Shown here: one piece after another, positions 19,357 through 63,990 of the stretch
Numbering within the stretch: position 1 is the first letter of the stretch
How the letters are laid out: each line of letters opens with the position of its first letter
From: Desulfobacterales bacterium
GTDB taxonomy: Bacteria > Desulfobacterota > Desulfobulbia > Desulfobulbales > BM004
Direction: 5' to 3'
NCBI GenBank assembly: GCA_021647905.1
Contig: JAKITW010000003.1
Coordinates: forward strand, 3,503-67,502
Length of the DNA: 64,000 nt
Position numbers and translations under genes: made by a program
Notes under the pieces: generated by a model
Told to the model about the DNA's origin: nothing
The model's database searches: none
The model's input: only the letters and a program-made list of their open reading frames with translations

Positions 19357-19553
19357 GCAACCGGATTTTTTACCGGTCCATTGATCCCGCGCTTGTCAGG
19401 CACCAACCAGTGTCTGTCCAGAAATGAGCAATTTCGTTCAAGATCAAGGATCGCGAAAAAAACAACCGGAGTCATATAAATGATATTACGAGGATTATTT
19501 TTTGAGTATGACGCCGAGATTGGGCGAAAGGGCCCTTTCTGGACGGGCACCAA

Positions 19554-28572: not shown

Positions 28573-28974
28573 AATGCTTTCTCCTTAATTAGATTGAAAT
28601 TTCCGATAACAAGTCTCTCCATCAACAATAAATATGACCCGATTATTTTTTCACAAGCCCTGATCTTGAACAAAACTGGTCAGTTCTGGACAGACACTAC
28701 CTCTTCGGGGCACCCCCGTCAATGCCAAACGTCCGCTTTTCGGCCCAGCAGACGCAACCGCTGCCTTGTAAGACCGGGCCCTTTTCGTTGGTCGATCAGA
28801 CCCGTTACGGTTCGTTCCGCAAAGCTCTTGAAGGGCGGGATTTATCTCAACAAAGAGGCAAAATACTTTTTGATGCGGCACCCGGGCGATCTTTTGCTTG
28901 TGCTTGTTCTCCAGGGCTTGCTATGGTTTATTAGCGGGCCGCACCGGTCTGCAAACACATGGTCTCAAGGGGGT

Positions 28975-46132: not shown

Positions 46133-46186
46133 GCTTCATTTTCTTCCATGTTTCAGGTTGGGGTGCTCTTGCTGGTCCCGGAAAGA

Positions 46187-50636: not shown

Positions 50637-50735
50637 GTCGGTCTCGTAAAAACATTCGAGACGGACGTGGGTCTTGTTGTAACTTGCTGATTCCGTTCAG
50701 TGGCATTTGAAACATTTCGGGTTGTTACGAGTTTG
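50637..50735 (+). mobile_element. 99-bp MITE, diverged copy A
   Basis: gtcggtctcgtaaaaacattcgagacggacgtgg...tttcgggttgttacgagtttg is about 80% identical by eye to the reverse complement of copies B and C. Its flanks are not a clean TSD. Confidence 0.7.
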
Positions 50736-51131
50736 TCATTTTTCGGAAGAACCGTCCAGGGTGGCGGCGAATTTCGCCCGGAACTCCGGGTAACTCATGG
50801 ACCGGTTGATTCCCGGGCAGGATTCCCGGATCGCGCTCAGGTTGGCCTCGTCCTTCAGAAGACTGGGGTGGAGCGGCCATTCCCGGCAGCGCCACGGCCT
50901 GCCCGGATGCACGGTACAGCCCTGGTCATAGAATATGCAGTGGCCGTCCCTGATCTTCATCTGGACGATGTTGCCGCTTATCCGCCAGAATTTTTCCGCC
51001 ACCTCTTTCTCGCTCATGCCCAGATGGGCGCACATCCGCCCGCGGTCCGCCTCGTCCAGCGACACCGTGGTCTGGCCATGGCAGCAATAGCCGCATTGTT
51101 GGCACTCGAATATTTTTTCGTCCATGTTCAC
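50736..51131 (-). CDS. YkgJ-family cysteine-cluster protein (CxxCxxCC; UPF0153)
   Basis: FECQQCGYCCHG near the N-terminus and CIFYD..GCTVHPGRPWRCREWP later. Confidence 0.7.
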   Translation of the reverse strand: MNMDEKIFECQQCGYCCHGQTTVSLDEADRGRMCAHLGMSEKEVAEKFWRISGNIVQMKIRDGHCIFYDQGCTVHPGRPWRCREWPLHPSLLKDEANLSAIRESCPGINRSMSYPEFRAKFAATLDGSSEK

Positions 51132-51193
51132 TCGGTGCCCTCTGCGTCCTCGGCGGTGAAATCAGACTTTTTTACGAGTCCGTCAAAAAATGA

Positions 51194-51292
51194 TGAACTC
51201 GTAACAACCCGAAAGGCTTCAAATGCCACCCAATAAAATCAACAAGTTACAAGACGAATCACGTCCGTCGAGCGGGTTGTTGCGAGACCGAC
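51194..51292 (-). mobile_element. 99-bp MITE, copy B
   Basis: Identical to copies C and D. Flanked by the direct repeat aaaaaatga (51185-51193 and 51293-51301). The terminal inverted repeat core is CTCG(Y)AACAACCCG. Confidence 0.85.
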
Positions 51293-51319
51293 AAAAAATG
51301 AAGAGAAACGTGAGATTGC

Positions 51320-55638: not shown

Positions 55639-55675
55639 GCCGGTCTCGCAATAACCCGCGAGACGGACGTGTGTC
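55639..55675 (+). mobile_element. MITE 5'-end fragment, copy E
   Basis: gccggtctcgcaataacccgcgagacggacgtgtgtc matches the first roughly 37 nt of the MITE. The rest is absent. Confidence 0.5.
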
Positions 55676-57270: not shown

Positions 57271-58389
57271 ATGCGCAACACCCCTCCCCCATCCACCAAG
57301 ACCAGGAAATGGCTCCTCTACGCCATCCTGACCCTGTTCATCGCCATTTTCGCGGCCCGGCTTTTTGAGCGGCCCCGGCACGACATTGATGCGGAACCGC
57401 GGCCAGTGGTGGCCCGGGGCGATCTGGCCGCTGATGAGAGGAACACCATTGACATCTTCAAGTCAGCCTCCCCCTCGGTGGTCTATATCACCACCACCGA
57501 ACTGCGACGCGGCCTTTTCAGTCTGAACGTCTATGAGATTCCCCAGGGCACGGGGTCTGGTTTTGTCTGGGACAAGGAAGGAAGAATCGTCACCAACTTT
57601 CACGTGATCGGCGAGGCCAGCCGGGTGGAGGTGACCCTGGCCGATCAATCCACCTGGGAGGGCAAACTGGTCGGCGCGGCGCCGGACAAGGATATCGCCG
57701 TCCTGCAGATCACAGCGCCGAAAGACAAGCTCCACCCCATTTCCATCGGCGATTCCAGAAATCTGCAGGTCGGCCAGAAGGTCTTTGCCATCGGCAACCC
57801 CTTTGGCCTGGACCACACGATCACCGCGGGAATCGTCAGTGCCCTGGGCCGCGAGATCAAGGCGGTTACCGGCAGAACGATCCAGGATGTGATCCAGACC
57901 GATGCGGCGATCAACCCGGGCAATTCAGGCGGACCGCTGCTTGACAGCGCCGGCCGGTTGATCGGGGTCAATACCGCTATCTTCAGCCCGTCCGGGGCCA
58001 ATTCAGGGATCGGTTTTGCCGTGCCGGTGGAAGGGGTGAACCGGGTGGCAACGGAACTTATCCGCCATGGCCGCCTGATCCGGCCCGGCATGGGGATCCA
58101 GGTAGCCAACCAACGTATCGTCCGCCGGTTGAAAATCAAGGGGGTGCTGATCGTCAGGGTGCAGAAGAACGGCGCCGCGGACCGGGCCGGACTGATCGGC
58201 ACCCGGGAAGTGCGCGGCAATATTGTTCTCGGCGATATCATCCAGTCGATCAACGGTCAGCGGGTGCTTAATTACGACGACCTGCGCAACGAACTGGACC
58301 AATACAAGATCAACGACACGGTCACCGCGGGCATCCTCCGGGGCAGCAAGAGGATGTCCGTGGAGGTTACACTGGAAGCCATCGAATAG
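57271..58389 (+). CDS. HtrA/DegP-family serine protease with one PDZ domain
   Basis: N-terminal TM anchor, catalytic triad contexts TNFHVI, DIAVLQI and GNSGGPL, and a C-terminal PDZ. Start at ATG 57271. Confidence 0.85.
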   Translation: MRNTPPPSTKTRKWLLYAILTLFIAIFAARLFERPRHDIDAEPRPVVARGDLAADERNTIDIFKSASPSVVYITTTELRRGLFSLNVYEIPQGTGSGFVWDKEGRIVTNFHVIGEASRVEVTLADQSTWEGKLVGAAPDKDIAVLQITAPKDKLHPISIGDSRNLQVGQKVFAIGNPFGLDHTITAGIVSALGREIKAVTGRTIQDVIQTDAAINPGNSGGPLLDSAGRLIGVNTAIFSPSGANSGIGFAVPVEGVNRVATELIRHGRLIRPGMGIQVANQRIVRRLKIKGVLIVRVQKNGAADRAGLIGTREVRGNIVLGDIIQSINGQRVLNYDDLRNELDQYKINDTVTAGILRGSKRMSVEVTLEAIE

Positions 58390-58399
58390 AACGCTCTCC

Positions 58400-58898
58400 T
58401 GCCGGTGTTGAGCCGACGGGGCAGGAAACAGCCGGACACCAGTCGCCGGGCTGCTCAACCGCAATATTTTTCAAATCAAATTGAGTAAGAAAATAGGAGG
58501 CATGGGTTGCCAGAACCACCTGCGTTCTTCTGGAGGCCCCCTCTCAAATAGACCTGCCAGAATTGGCAAGGTGCGCGGATGAACTCCCTGATCAGGTTCA
58601 TCAATACAGATCAAGGTCGGAGGAGTCGGCATTACGCATAAGGTCGCCCAGGCAATAAACCGAAGTGTGCCGTCGGATAAATCGGCCAAGCTCAAATCCG
58701 TATCAATATTGTTCTCCCGCCAGAAGGCAATGACTTCACCGGGACCGCAATCAAAAGACTCCTCCTTTCCTTATATCCTGCTTCCTTCCCATGCGGTATT
58801 TGATGTCGTAGTTGACATTAATGTCCAGTTCGCTTTGCCCTCCCTGGACTTCGGCAACAAGGCGCCTGAGTTCTTCACGGATCATGCCGCGATTCCCT
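58400..58898 (-). pseudogene. Frameshifted AAA_21/ABC-type ATPase remnant
   Basis: Three frames carry successive pieces: MIREELRRLVAEV...; then LSLADLSDGTLRFIAWATLCVMPTPPTLICIDEPDQGVHPRTLPILAGLFE; then RRTQVVLATHASYFLTQFDLKNIAV. No Walker A region remains. Confidence 0.6.
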
Positions 58899-59007
58899 CA
58901 TGGTTTGACTCCCCGGCCTGAAGCCGTGTTTGGCCGATTACTGTGTAAGGTTTCCTTGCTTCCCCGGAATCATGCGGTTCCCTATCACGGCTGTTTTCAA
59001 TACTTGA

Positions 59008-59106
59008 TGAACTCGTAACAACCCGAAAGGCTTCAAATGCCACCCAATAAAATCAACAAGTTACAAGACGAATCACGTCCGTCGAGCGGGTTGTTGCGAG
59101 ACCGAC
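59008..59106 (-). mobile_element. 99-bp MITE, copy C
   Basis: Identical to copies B and D. Flanked by the direct repeat aatacttga (58999-59007 and 59107-59115). Confidence 0.85.
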
Positions 59107-59191
59107 AATACTTGAGAAAAGCATAATTTCATGGACGTCCCTCTCGTAACTCTCGTCCCTCTTGTAACTCTCGCGAGCGCCATTGGAGATA

Positions 59192-60337
59192 TCAGTGAGG
59201 CGCTTTGCTGCCGGCGATACCATTAAGCCATTTGGCAAACACAGGATCGACCACCTTCCAGGTTCCGCTCTCTTTCGCCTGTTCAATGAAATCTTCTTTT
59301 TTGAGCCTATCGCGGGCAAATTGCACAGAACTCGTGGGCAGACCGCACTTGCTGATGAATTCACCGGACAGCATTTCCTTGGTCGATGATTGGGCAAGGG
59401 TGCGAAGGACCCGCACTTGCGGAATGGTCAACTGGGATAGGACCGCTTCAAAGGCGTACCGCTCCGCATCGATCACCTGTTCCAGCGCCCGCTTCACATC
59501 TTCTTGTAAGAATTCGTCCTTTTCGAGGTCATAGACTTCTCTGGCCAGTCGTTGTACGTAATAGGGATGCTGCTCAACCTTCAAGGAGATTTCCGCGCAG
59601 AGTTCATCAGGACAGTCTTTTCCCTCCTTAGCGAAAAGCTCGGACAGGAAGGCAACAAGATCCTCGTGGGGAAGAGGAGGGAGTTCCATATTGATTGCTG
59701 ATTGAAAAAAAGGCCTCTTCCGCTCGGAAAACATGGCCCTGAGAATACCCCTCCGGCTGCCGAGAAAAAAGAACGAGGCCTTTAGCCCCTGGATCTTGCC
59801 GCGCATGATCCCCTCGATTTGTGCAGATTCCTTAAGCCTGGTGATTTCCTGAAATTCATCCAGCACAAAGTTTACCCGATAGCCTGACTTCGCGGTAAAC
59901 TCGGCCAGTTCGCCCAGGATACGTTCAAGTAGCTCCATCGGTTTTTCCGTCGAAGCGGGCTCTACGCCGACGGAGACGCCATCTTCCGTAGGTCTGAATA
60001 CCGGGCGGAACGAACTGAAATATTTAAGAAGCCTTTTTCCCTTCGCCAGCAACGACTCCCGGGCATGGATGGCCCCCAGTATGCTTCGGGCCATTCGGGA
60101 GGCGGCATCCAGGACCGAGTCTACACCGAAGAACTGGCAGTAAATAGTCACATACCCTTGTCTTGCGAGCATCGCCTGGATCCGGAGGGCCAGTGACGTT
60201 TTCCCATAGCGGCGGGGAGAAAGAAGCACGATATTCGTGCCGCTTTCAGCACAGGAAAGCAACCGGCGTATTTCCTCCTGCCTGTCGCAAAAGGGGCTGT
60301 CCGGCGGAAGGGTCTCAATGAGAAAAGGATTGGGCAT
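59192..60337 (-). CDS. Arch_ATPase-type (PF01637-like) AAA+ ATPase with a putative C-terminal wHTH
   Basis: FCDRQEEIRRL...IVLLSPRRYGKTSL (Walker A) and FVLDEFQEI (Walker B). Confidence 0.75.
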   Translation of the reverse strand: MPNPFLIETLPPDSPFCDRQEEIRRLLSCAESGTNIVLLSPRRYGKTSLALRIQAMLARQGYVTIYCQFFGVDSVLDAASRMARSILGAIHARESLLAKGKRLLKYFSSFRPVFRPTEDGVSVGVEPASTEKPMELLERILGELAEFTAKSGYRVNFVLDEFQEITRLKESAQIEGIMRGKIQGLKASFFFLGSRRGILRAMFSERKRPFFQSAINMELPPLPHEDLVAFLSELFAKEGKDCPDELCAEISLKVEQHPYYVQRLAREVYDLEKDEFLQEDVKRALEQVIDAERYAFEAVLSQLTIPQVRVLRTLAQSSTKEMLSGEFISKCGLPTSSVQFARDRLKKEDFIEQAKESGTWKVVDPVFAKWLNGIAGSKAPH

Positions 60338-60724: not shown

Positions 60725-61303
60725 TCACACCGGTTTATACGTTGAGACTTTTTTGCCAAGGGACATAGCTTGCTTCAAGAGTTGGGCCACTTTTCCTCCA
60801 GGGTGTGCGTAAGGGACAAACAGCTCCTCGGCCAATGCGGCAACAAAGGTATTTCGTTCAACTCCCAATGTAAGCGTCGGACGCCGGTGTTTATTTGGAA
60901 AAGGTGAGACCACCAGCAATCTTCCCTCAGCCAATGATTTTCTCCAAACCTTAGGTATGCGCATATGCTCTATGCCACGGGCCGGACAGATTACCAAGGG
61001 CTGTGTGCCTCTTAACAGAAAGTCCAGACACTCCTTTTCCATAGGTGAATGAAAACCGCCGATAACCACTGTCCCATTATCCCGCCACGATCTGGCCAGG
61101 TCGTAAGTTTTCAAGATAATGTCACCCGGGCATCTGGTTGAGCAGAAAAAGCCTAATAACTTATGCTGGAGAATATCAATATTACCGATAGCCCAAATTT
61201 TATGAGGAGGAGGAAGCAGGTTACTGTCCTGCAATTTCGAAGGATATACAGGATTATTGAAAGCTATAGTGTTTACCTGAACCGTCATTGACTCTGTCAC
61301 CAT
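60725..61303 (-). CDS. Short DprA/Smf-like (SLOG/Rossmann) protein
   Basis: KLLGFFCSTRCPGDIILKTYDLARSWRDNGTVVIGGFHSPMEKECLDFLLRGTQPLVICPARGI resembles the DprA core (GxxSGxAxGID replaced by GGFHSPMEKE). It lacks the SAM and DML1 flanking domains. Confidence 0.55.
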   Translation of the reverse strand: MVTESMTVQVNTIAFNNPVYPSKLQDSNLLPPPHKIWAIGNIDILQHKLLGFFCSTRCPGDIILKTYDLARSWRDNGTVVIGGFHSPMEKECLDFLLRGTQPLVICPARGIEHMRIPKVWRKSLAEGRLLVVSPFPNKHRRPTLTLGVERNTFVAALAEELFVPYAHPGGKVAQLLKQAMSLGKKVSTYKPV

Positions 61304-61550: not shown

Positions 61551-63343
61551 TTAAGACAAGGCATAACGCGCCCATCGGAGTTTCCCCTCTCGTCTCAGTA
61601 CCCCAGCATGAGTCATTCTTTTCAGCAGATATGAGGCCCTGGTCATATCTACTCCCAGCAACTCTCTGCATTCAGCATTGTTAATGGAACCATGCTCCCG
61701 GACATGGGCAATAATTCTTTCTTCGCCGCTTTGCGGCGGCTGTTGCTCGACCGGTAGTTTATGAGGTACGTTCAGGGTGTAGCTGGTACCCCGACCTACG
61801 CCTTGTTGTTCTACTAAGCCGGCCTGGGCCAGACCCCGCAGTTCCTGGCCGGCAACGATAGTATCGACCCTGTTCAGCCGCCTGTAGTCGCTGTTGGTGA
61901 TTTTCCCGTGATGCCTCAGATAGATGAGGGTGAGGCGTTGCCGGTCGTTCAGAGCATGGTCGGCAAATTGATTAAGCCAGGAAATGGCTTCCGGTGACAT
62001 CAATGTGTGGTTATGAAAAGTTATCCTGAAAGAAGAACGCCAGTCGTCAAAACGGGGAGGTTCCAGATTGGCGGTTCGAAGCGCATGGAGCATGGCCTTG
62101 ATACCGCTGCCGCGATTCTCCACAATATGCATATCTTCCATCATCCGCATAAGCCGGGCATTTCGCGTGGAGTGTTCTTCGTCAATATTGTCGGTCTCGC
62201 AACAACCCGCTCGACGGACGTGATTCGTCTTGTAACTTGTTGATTTTATTGGGTGGCATTTGAAGCCTTTCGGGTTGTTACGAGTTCATCAATATTATCA
62301 ACCGTTACATTTCCAAAAAGACCTCCAGGGCTTGAAACTTCCAGACGGTTTGCGAACATGCGAATCTGGATGTAACTGCCCCGGACATGCGAGCTGTAAT
62401 CACGGTGCGCCACCGCATTGGCAATGGCTTCCCGCAAGGCTTCCTGTGGATACTCCGGGATATCGCGGCGGAACATACCCTCAATAAGAGAGGCCTTACG
62501 CATCGATCCCATCACATAACTTTCAGCAGCGGCAACCATCTCGGGCACAGGGCCTTCAAACGTCCGGTTATCCACGAACCGGGCGCCCTGCGGAGTCCGC
62601 TCGTCATCGGTTGTGCCGTAGTATTGAATAAAGGTAATTGTGAGTTGGGGGAGAAATTCCTGGGGGTATTTTCCGAACATGAGAAGCCCTGCCAATGTTG
62701 GCCGGAATGTCTCCCCATCCCGACCAATTACACGCAGGCGGGCAAGGACTTCTTCTTTCCGCCCTTGTAAGAAGGTGGCTCTTGGCCTGGTACGGCGCAG
62801 ATTATCGAGATATTGATTCAGGAGCGAGTCATCGAGATCTTCGATATGAGCATTTTTGATTATGTCTTCATCGTGGGTCGGCTGTCCCCGACTGCTCATA
62901 TAACCGAAGACTTCGTAGTCGGTCATCCGGCGGTTGGTGTTCCCGACACGGATGTACGAGCCTTTCTGCAAGCCCGCACTTTTATAGAAGCACGGTTTCC
63001 GATCAACGGGAATCTCCTCGATGGTTACCGCCACTATTGTCTGGTCATCAATCTCATCGATTATAAATTCAGGCCGCAATGCCGGCTCCATTTCATGGGC
63101 TGCCAAAAGGGTTAACTCTTCCTGCAACCGATGGGCATCACCCACACCGACTATGGAAAAGTCGCTGGTTTCGTCCAAGCCGAACAGGATCACACCGCCA
63201 CCTGTCCGGTTGGCAAAAGCAGAAAGCGGCTCAAACAATCGCCTGGGCGTCCCGCCCCGAGCCGCCTTGACCTCAAGGTTGTCGAGTTCAGTCTGCTGCC
63301 TCTGCACAGAGGCTATGAGTTGGTGTAATTCTTCCCGTGTCAT
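61551..63343 (-). pseudogene. AlbA_2 (Schlafen-like) plus HATPase_c_4 plus wHTH protein, interrupted by a MITE
   Basis: The N-part (63343..62289) ends ...GNVTVDNID and then reads into the MITE. The C-part resumes EEHSTRNARLMRMMEDMHIVENRGSGI (62189..61551). Removing the 99-bp MITE and one 8-bp TSD copy leaves 1686 nt, a 561-aa intact frame. Confidence 0.85.
62190..62288 (+). mobile_element. 99-bp MITE, copy D (inside the AlbA_2 gene)
   Basis: Its reverse complement is identical to copies B and C. Flanked by the direct repeat tcaatatt (62182-62189 and 62289-62296). Confidence 0.9.
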
Positions 63344-63381
63344 GACTGTAAATAAAAAACCTCGGCCTCCTATAGCAGCCA

Positions 63382-63430
63382 AATCAACAAATCAGCCTCG
63401 GCTTGGGTAAGCATCAAAAAATCCTCATTT
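63382..63430. repeat. 49-bp direct repeat, copy 1
   Basis: aatcaacaaatcagcctcggcttgggtaagcatcaaa...cctcattt parallels 63942-63990. On the minus strand it encodes MLTQAEADLLI followed by an early stop. Confidence 0.75.
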
Positions 63431-63659
63431 AATTAATGCCGATGCGGTATTTGTTGTCGCAGTTGATGATGGGGTTCAGTTCTTCGTCCGTGAAGTTGTC
63501 AAGCCGTGCTTGGATACGGTCGATTCGGTCGATAAATTGTCTACCCGGTTTCACCAGCGCCCCTACCGCTACCGTACTACGATATTTTGTGTTTGGATCA
63601 CCTTTCCAAACCCAAAACGTTCAGAAAATCCCCATAAAATATCTTCTTATTACAATATA

Positions 63660-63974
63660 TTACATGCTTATTATGATCTTTTCGCCCAAATGTTTTGGGG
63701 ATTCGCAGGGCAAAATCCCCAAAACTCCGATATCCTGTCCTATGATTCCCCGCCGTCCGGTCCAGGGAACCACAGCGCCCCCCGTTTTTACTCTGCCATC
63801 CGGATGATGGATTTCTTTGTTATTATGGTCGTACACCAAACGATATTTTGCAGGGTAAAGGGTTAACCGGCCGCTGTCCCGCAACTCACGCAGGATCTGG
63901 CCCGGAAGTTCAACAGGCTCGCCCTTCGGGTCTGTCAGCACAATCAACAAATCAGCCTCGGTTTGGGTAAGCAT
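63660..63974 (-). CDS. Hypothetical protein (about 104 aa), possibly wHTH-like; C-terminus doubtful
   Basis: MLTQTEADLLIVLTDPKGEPVELPGQILRELRDSGRLTLYPAKYRLVY.... The last roughly 25 codons run through a perfect 12-bp hairpin, and a further open fragment (..GRQFIDRIDRIQARLDNFTDEELNPIINCDNKYRIGIN*) lies downstream in another frame. Confidence 0.4.
   Translation of the reverse strand: MLTQTEADLLIVLTDPKGEPVELPGQILRELRDSGRLTLYPAKYRLVYDHNNKEIHHPDGRVKTGGAVVPWTGRRGIIGQDIGVLGILPCESPKHLGEKIIISM
63692..63725. repeat. Perfect 12-bp hairpin
   Basis: gttttggggatt (63692-63703) / aatccccaaaac (63714-63725) with a 10-nt loop. Confidence 0.7.
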
Positions 63975-63990
63975 CAAACAGCCCTCATTT
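63942..63990. repeat. 49-bp direct repeat, copy 2
   Basis: aatcaacaaatcagcctcggtttgggtaagcatcaaa...cctcattt. It contains the start and first 11 codons of the 63660-63974 ORF. Confidence 0.75.

Follow-up and report, generated by a model that had tools for sequence, protein, structure and literature searches.

An almost certain case of gene disruption by a small mobile element was found in the 64,000-nt stretch of DNA analysed here (the window), in which a 99-bp non-autonomous MITE interrupts the reading frame of a prokaryotic Schlafen gene for a 561-aa protein with an SLFN/AlbA_2 nuclease, a GHKL-type ATPase and a putative C-terminal HTH. The event is of an ordinary kind: a MITE has recently entered a defence-type gene and turned it into a pseudogene, which amounts to clean transposon damage. 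In the NCBI entry for this MAG, labelled Desulfobacterales bacterium, the halves stand as two CDS with no pseudogene flag, the N-terminal half as MCF6289582.1 ('DNA binding domain-containing') and the C-terminal half as MCF6289581.1 ('hypothetical protein'). These two entries are one pseudogene.

Structure of the interrupted gene

The sequence-only reading had claimed that a MITE splits an AlbA_2/HATPase_c_4 gene and that its excision gives a 561-aa frame, and we could reproduce this: in-silico deletion of 62190-62296 leaves 1686 nt, that is 561 codons and a single terminal stop, with the rebuilt junction reading ...VTVDNIDEEHSTRNARLMRMMEDMHIVENRGSGI... and the break at residue 352|353. The 99-bp element and the 8-bp target-site duplication that it had proposed were located exactly, at 62190-62288 and as perfect copies on the two flanks (Table 1). 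The N-terminal ORF starts at the ATG at 63343 and its native tail ...GNVTVDNID is followed by ELVTTRKASNATQ and by a TAA at 62246, so the 14 MITE codons to a stop counted earlier are 13 sense codons and the stop itself. The in-frame lead-in to the C-terminal ORF was also found, as NIDEEHSTRNARL ahead of its start. Traced backwards, this frame meets no stop within the MITE until a TGA at the element boundary, and M363 is preceded by no ATG, GTG or TTG. The insertion lengthens the gene by 107 nt, a number not divisible by three, and as a result translation from the native start enters the element for 13 codons and stops, while the downstream 199 codons are separated from that start. No other lesion was seen in either half of the gene. 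Of the domains, SLFN_AlbA_2 (the nuclease, aa 21-141) falls in the N-terminal fragment, as does the first third of GHKL/HATPase_c_4, and the break lies inside the ATPase domain, between the invariant blocks SPGGL (338-342) and ENRGSGI (373-379).

Table 1. Coordinates of the gene fragments, target duplications, element copies and neighbouring gene in the window
Feature	Position	Strand	Remarks
N-terminal fragment as now read	62246..63343	-	365 aa = 352 native + 13 MITE-encoded residues, then TAA
C-terminal fragment	61551..62150	-	199 aa from M363; remaining GHKL domain (ENRGSGI box) and putative C-terminal HTH regions
Target-site duplication, C-terminal side of gene	62182..62189		TCAATATT on + strand
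Target-site duplication, N-terminal side of gene	62289..62296		TCAATATT on + strand
MITE copy A	62190..62288	+	99 bp, non-coding; left end GTCGGTCTCGCAACAACCCG, right end CGGGTTGTTACGAGTTCA
MITE copy B	59008..59106	-	100% identical to A; 9-bp duplication AATACTTGA at 58999-59007 and 59107-59115
MITE copy C	51194..51292	-	100% identical to A; 9-bp duplication AAAAAATGA at 51185-51193 and 51293-51301
Diverged family member D	50637..50732	+	about 80% identical to A; older; 3' boundary approximate
Solo left-end remnant of the MITE family	55639..55671	+	GCCGGTCTCGCAATAACCCGCGAGACGGACGTG
DprA-like (DNA_processg_A) gene, intact	60725..61303	-	immediately downstream of the Schlafen gene; likely true start M6

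Homologues of the rebuilt protein

The rebuilt protein was searched against 5.8 billion protein clusters, which gave 2021 matches at E <= 1e-10. The best 120 of these 2021 are all single proteins of 545-588 aa (80 of the 120 have exactly 560 aa) with 65-88% identity to the rebuilt protein, and nearly all of them cover 97-100% of it and have both Pfam domains. Alignment to intact homologues had been set beforehand as the check on the reconstruction; the rebuilt protein fits all 120 end to end and the junction is ungapped, with 0 gapped columns across residues 332-372 (41 columns around the junction) in the 121-sequence alignment, where the residues flanking the rebuilt junction are near-invariant. 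Also the HATPase_c_4 model matches from 1 to 89 of its 89 positions as one stretch across 352|353, which places the junction inside a single domain. The full-length single-protein homologues, the ungapped junction and the one HATPase_c_4 match across the break together make the two halves one gene.

Target duplication and empty sites

The duplication TCAATATT of the + strand is AATATTGA on the coding strand and both of its copies are perfect, the chance of a given perfect 8-bp flank match being 4^-8, about 1.5e-5. A 3.2-kb contig (L001) carries the best homologue (P0001, 88% identity), and a DNA_processg_A gene lies downstream of it, the same arrangement as that of the window. Its DNA aligns to the window with 85-86% identity on both sides of the site, with an interruption where the element sits. 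The sequence of L001 at this point is GTTGATAATATTGACGAAGAA (GTT GAT AAT ATT GAC GAA GAA), which has a single AATATTGA and is the predicted empty site; therefore all 8 duplicated bases were part of the target. In another relative (P0129 on contig L012) the site is also uninterrupted and reads ...VTVDNIDEEHSTRNARL.... The empty allele of the own population was searched for as an exact 33-mer across the rebuilt site, which is absent from the JGI metagenome contigs, and the closest intact protein among the 5.8 billion clusters is only 88% identical.

For the other copies, a syntenic contig (L011) with ~90% DNA identity across RlmH, CxxCxxCC, AlgH, GlgB, FabF and HtrA is without copies C and D, and the genes flanking those sites abut or overlap there. 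At the position of the solo left end (55639) L011 has unrelated sequence. It may be noted that in three further contigs (L013-L015) the ATPase gene is 96% identical to that of the window and divergence begins before the copy B site, due to which these contigs are uninformative on the empty site of copy B.

The element and its copies

The element boundaries were set by comparing the three identical copies A, B and C (100%), which lie within 11 kb in the window. A 20-nt element end has 4 matches in the window as against 0 in 100 shuffles. A subterminal inverted repeat of 14 bp pairs positions 7-20 with 82-95 (13 pairs, one mismatch), so that the outermost bases, 6 nt at the left end and 4 nt at the right, stay unpaired, and the predicted fold has -14.7 kcal/mol with z = -2.2. 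The element has no coding capacity, the frames through it being continuations of the host gene; no promoter- or terminator-like sites were found within it, and an Rfam search of the element gave no family match. Copy B is intergenic, 3' of the ATPase gene at 59192-60337, and the duplication of copy D has decayed to CTGTTTTT / TCATTTTT.

Five complete copies (A, B, C and the two found in contig L003, described below) each have their own 8-9 bp direct duplication. In element orientation these read TCAATATT, TCAAGTATT, TCATTTTTT, (C)CATGGCTT and TCAGGATT, all of the form TCA...TT, which in this small sample suggests a target preference for TCA-N3-4-TT. Being mobile, multi-copy, duplication-forming and non-coding, the element is a MITE; this label is given on structure and copy behaviour, as the searches turned up no IS that could be its autonomous partner.

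Among the bacterial MITEs known to insert in genes or operons are Correia (Neisseria), RUP (Streptococcus pneumoniae), Nezha (cyanobacteria) and Chunjie (Geobacter uraniireducens). These named elements resemble ours in being about 100 bp and non-coding with near-terminal inverted repeats and a target duplication, and also in having many near-identical copies, presence/absence polymorphism among close relatives and insertions into genes. However, the duplication of Correia and RUP is TA as opposed to the 8-9 bp found here, and our element further differs from the named MITEs in that its inverted repeat is subterminal and its targets share TCA-N3-4-TT.

Distribution of the family and search for a parent IS

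A 19-mer of the conserved right end was used as probe to scan 185,579 representative genomes, where it was found in two short contigs only (L002 and L003), both without a transposase. Of these, L003 contains one copy of 100% and one of 98% identity, each with its own duplication, and L002 ends inside one element copy. Both contigs come from vent-chimney MAGs of the Southwest Indian Ridge (PMC9769843). The search for an autonomous IS that shares the ends of the element came up empty in the window, the 185,579 representative genomes, the JGI metagenomes, the viral contigs and the plasmids; within the window, end motifs at up to 3 mismatches returned only the MITE copies and one solo end. The viral contigs gave no match to either element end or to the protein, and the plasmids (blastn) no match to the element. 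Nothing in Rfam, the plasmids or the viral contigs matched the MITE family.

Two candidates were set aside. The single match of the 19-mer among the metagenome contigs (L004) lies in a Bacteroidota-like housekeeping contig and extends over just 19-20 nt, and was treated as chance. The 450 bp between the inverted copies D and C was considered as an IS remnant, but what is encoded there is an ordinary CxxCxxCC protein, which L011 has too, with no elements beside it. Duplications of 8-9 bp fit several IS families, namely IS256, IS1, ISL3, IS1595 and ISAs1.

Mechanism and timing of the insertion

A DDE-type transposase supplied in trans would have made an 8-nt staggered cut at AATATTGA, and gap repair would have duplicated those 8 nt. 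The claim of a recent transposition, made from the letters of the window alone, agrees with the perfect duplication, the three identical window copies, the intact state of the halves outside the insertion and a dN/dS of 0.12. The last value was obtained against L001 for the whole gene, with 0.09 for the N-terminal part and 0.13 for the C-terminal part, and neither half is otherwise damaged; the gene was under selection until recently. The insertion event is thus recent, and the element family has been active in the lineage since the split from the 90%-DNA-identical relative. As the source is a metagenome-assembled contig, the insertion could be present in only a part of the population.

Alternative explanations

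The public annotation with its two CDS (MCF6289582.1 and MCF6289581.1) would agree with the two ORFs being naturally separate genes of a split Schlafen/ATPase system, with the 99-bp element merely lying between them, and the sequence-only reading had named halves that are normally separate as a finding that would overturn it. This is not so: the best 120 homologues are all single proteins, the split falls inside one Pfam domain between invariant motifs, and the last codons of the N-terminal ORF are encoded by the element. We therefore regard separate genes as already refuted by the homologue comparison and give them next to no chance. An artefact, in which the assembler joined reads through the repeated 99-bp sequence and misplaced the element inside an intact gene, might be thought of since the window is a MAG contig and repeats of this MITE family end contigs elsewhere, as where L002 stops inside a copy. 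But a mis-join would not make a perfect 8-bp target duplication that is single in the orthologue, nor does it suit flanks that are two halves of one gene with order and orientation kept, or the same insertion signature at all other copies, and an artefact is in our judgement extremely improbable.

With the split as a true insertion into one gene, there is also the question of whether it acts as a reversible or tolerated switch, where either precise excision restores the gene, in the manner of phase variation, or a ribosomal frameshift in the first 13 element codons gives the full-length protein with a 35-aa insert. The C-terminal frame that is open across the entire element from the TGA at the boundary, the undamaged state of both halves and the advantage that could lie in turning off a toxic abortive-infection nuclease are in line with such a switch. 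Yet 35 extra residues between the G1-like and G2 boxes would probably disrupt the GHKL fold, precise excision of DDE-type elements is rare, and the JGI metagenome contigs lack the empty allele of the own population, leaving a switch very improbable. About as little probability is given by us to an element of the IS200/IS605 type (palindrome-associated) or of REP-like type, moved by a tyrosine (HUH) transposase, for which a small hairpin is possible at the left end of the diverged copies (GGTCTCG...CGAGACG at 50640 and 55642). IS200/IS605-type and REP elements insert without target duplication, beside a fixed short motif, whereas the five complete copies here have their own 8-9 bp duplications and the orthologous empty site shows the 8 bp to be target; mobility of this type is excluded by these duplications. 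The account kept is insertion of a duplication-forming MITE into a single Schlafen gene.

Identity of the protein and expected effect

By its domains and motifs, the disrupted gene belongs to the prokaryotic Schlafens and has their common architecture of SLFN + GHKL-ATPase + HTH, the HTH being putative. The rebuilt protein matches SLFN_AlbA_2 (PF04326) at aa 21-141 with 54.5 bits against a cut-off of 25.3, PDB 2kyy at aa 23-140, and HATPase_c_4 (PF13749) at aa 322-407 with 90.3 bits, the latter domain being cut at residue 352 in the sequence as it stands. The Ex4ExK nuclease motif is intact (E19-LDNL-E24-V-K26) and its three residues do not vary across the 121 aligned sequences; the same holds for the GHKL boxes. 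Matches in aa 427-553 to DIP2311-like_C, HTH_27 and MarR (Pfam) and to ArsR/SmtB (NCBIfam) are all below the curated cut-offs. Also the region matched by the pAgo model of PADLOC, aa 35-411 (E 1.9e-23), is the SLFN + ATPase supradomain.

The motif definition used is Ex4(E/D)xK of PMC13056530, where a defence role is described for bacterial Schlafens. In that survey SLFN + histidine-kinase-like ATPase + HTH makes up 19.2% of 5,930 proteins and is among the commonest architectures; protection was obtained only from DUF262- and Ig-like fusions, and the tested histidine-kinase-type fusions gave none (PMC13056530). The 'HisKinase-HTH' pSlfn class of Perez Taboada et al. 2026 (PMC13056530) has the same SLFN/AlbA_2 + Ex4ExK + ATPase, then HTH regions (putative in our protein), and a defence-island-like setting, but the copy here is broken and the conserved DprA-like neighbour is not mentioned there. 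The same PF04326 + PF13749 pair forms the 'Schlatpase' supradomain of SLFN-pAgo (RzAgo; bioRxiv 10.64898/2026.05.29.728809), and a 'Schlatpase' with a C-terminal HTH, to which the gene here corresponds, is described in the same work. In SLFN-pAgo, oligomerisation is driven by ATP binding to the GHKL domain and is the step by which the active nuclease is put together (bioRxiv 10.64898/2026.05.29.728809). SLFN-pAgo has an Argonaute core while our protein has none and ends in a putative HTH, and the mechanism is carried over by analogy only. On the cut between the conserved ATPase boxes, the ATP-binding fold would fail to form, and the protein is most likely inactive despite its intact nuclease motif. 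A truncated nuclease fragment could still be made.

The DprA-like neighbour and the genomic setting

The DprA-like protein has 77% ungapped identity to its L001 counterpart. PADLOC matches it to PsyrA (1.6e-12, positions 97-249 of 398) and to ShosA (1.7e-3), the DprA-like core alone being matched, and gives no PsyrT or ShosT match for the Schlafen partner. The pairing of Schlafen and DprA-like genes was also found in 5 other contexts (6 in all), with the DprA-like gene 120-200 bp downstream, and the flanks of the pair vary (type I R-M, MmeI-like R-M, Fic, DDE transposase). The claim that the gene is of a class found in defence islands is borne out by the type I and MmeI-like R-M systems, Fic and transposase near the homologues and by PMC13056530. 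In the window itself, GC is about 0.58-0.63 and drops to 0.43-0.54 past a point near 58.4 kb; the genes of this lower-GC part are those for an AAA-type ATPase, the DprA-like protein and the Schlafen, along with small ORFs or fragments.

In the defence toxin-antitoxin pairs PsyrTA (RqlHI) and ShosTA, whose antitoxins are PsyrA and ShosA, a small DprA-like protein stands beside a potentially toxic enzyme, as it does here, where toxicity is putative. The enzymes differ, PsyrT being a RecQ-like helicase and ShosT a phosphoribosyltransferase, as against SLFN + GHKL + HTH (putative) for the partner here. A joint reading can be put forward, though we consider it doubtful, in which the Schlafen-ATPase-HTH and DprA-like proteins form an undescribed two-gene toxin-antitoxin-like defence module, with the DprA-like protein restraining the toxic enzyme as in PsyrTA and ShosTA, and the MITE has hit the toxin and spared the antitoxin, and the MITE belongs to an undescribed, locally hopping family that prefers TCA-N3-4-TT. 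If this were true, a lost toxin beside an intact antitoxin would be the expected direction of decay for such pairs.

Implications

In practice what matters most is the mis-annotation, together with the conserved pairing of Schlafen and DprA-like genes. Split entries of such pseudogenes lead to spurious families in protein databases. The pairing is the most useful lead, because the Schlafen ATPase-HTH architecture is without a demonstrated function. For the lineage, the window provides a site-resolved and dated case of a currently active MITE family in uncultured Desulfobacterales, and the presence or absence of the MITE relative to the 90%-DNA-identical relative could serve as a strain marker. 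It also offers a view of defence-gene turnover, in which a member of a newly recognised bacterial Schlafen class has apparently been inactivated by a mobile element in a decaying island of lower GC.

Schlafen/DprA-like gene pair and its surroundings

A small DprA-like (DNA_processg_A) gene was found always directly after the gene of this Schlafen-ATPase-HTH subfamily, in the window as well as on the orthologue contig L001 and the homologue contigs L005, L006, L007 and L009/L010, and across the same set the genes around the pair vary. The DprA-like protein is matched by the PADLOC PsyrA and ShosA antitoxin models, and the pairing is unmentioned in two Schlafen papers (PMC13056530; bioRxiv 10.64898/2026.05.29.728809).

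Positions of the gene pair and repeats
Feature	Location	Identity
Schlafen gene	window 61551-63343	
DprA-like gene	window 60725-61303	
55-nt direct repeat	window 63376-63430 and 63936-63990	89%
99-bp element	L003 4208-4306 and 6288-6386	100% and 98%
99-bp element, partial	L002 3861-3888	
Second repeat family, ends AGTGTCTGTCCAGAAATG...	window 19409-19525 and 28646-28698	

The proximal copy of the 55-nt repeat immediately precedes the start of the Schlafen gene; the distal copy lies 560 bp further on, where it covers the 5′ end of a 105-aa ORF (63660-63977); the proximal copy therefore looks like a truncated duplicate of the start of that ORF's gene. Two small minus-strand ORFs (58751-58885 and 63429-63554) were also seen to have a common C-terminal pattern, EL....N.D.KYR.G. 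They share a 44-nt repeat at 77% identity, the start of the former (MIREELRRLVAEVQGGQSELD) is similar to the N-terminus of the Schlafen protein (MTREELHQLIASVQRQQTELD), and they may be paralogue fragments. The minus strand at 58367-58695 has a pair of short ORFs that overlap and by eye resemble the C-terminal region of an AAA_21/ABC-type ATPase, with ...LICIDEPDQGVHP... in one frame and ...VLATHASYFL... in another. This suggests, on visual comparison, that the remnant of a frameshifted gene lies at the margin of the lower-GC island.

The AAA-type ATPase gene adjoining MITE copy B (59192-60337) has counterparts at 96% DNA identity on three short, unrelated contigs (L013-L015). Because the sequence downstream of it differs on these contigs (ParE/RHH toxin-antitoxin genes on L013), this gene is also one that moves between contexts.

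Repeat elements in relatives and on other contigs

At window 51131-51316, MITE copy C lies within ~88 bp absent from the syntenic relative L011. Its duplication is adjoined by GACGGACTCGTAAAAAAGT, which is similar to the left end of the diverged member D, and copy C looks like a nested insertion next to an older remnant. D and C, mutually inverted, flank a 131-aa CxxCxxCC gene (50736-51131; whole arrangement 50637-51292) that in L011 abuts its neighbours with neither D nor C. Of the second repeat family, L011 (about 478-647) has a ~165-bp copy with inverted ends at a site that is empty in the window (46139-46167). This family is probably a further MITE whose polymorphism runs in the opposite direction.

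The contigs L003 and L002, on which the 99-bp element recurs, are short, come from Southwest Indian Ridge vent chimneys and were assigned to Verrucomicrobia and Planctomycetota bins. Judged by their translations, the ORFs of L003 also appear to include a type I R-M specificity subunit and a RhuM-like gene. Either these are mis-binned contigs of a Desulfobacterales relative, or the element has spread across lineages.
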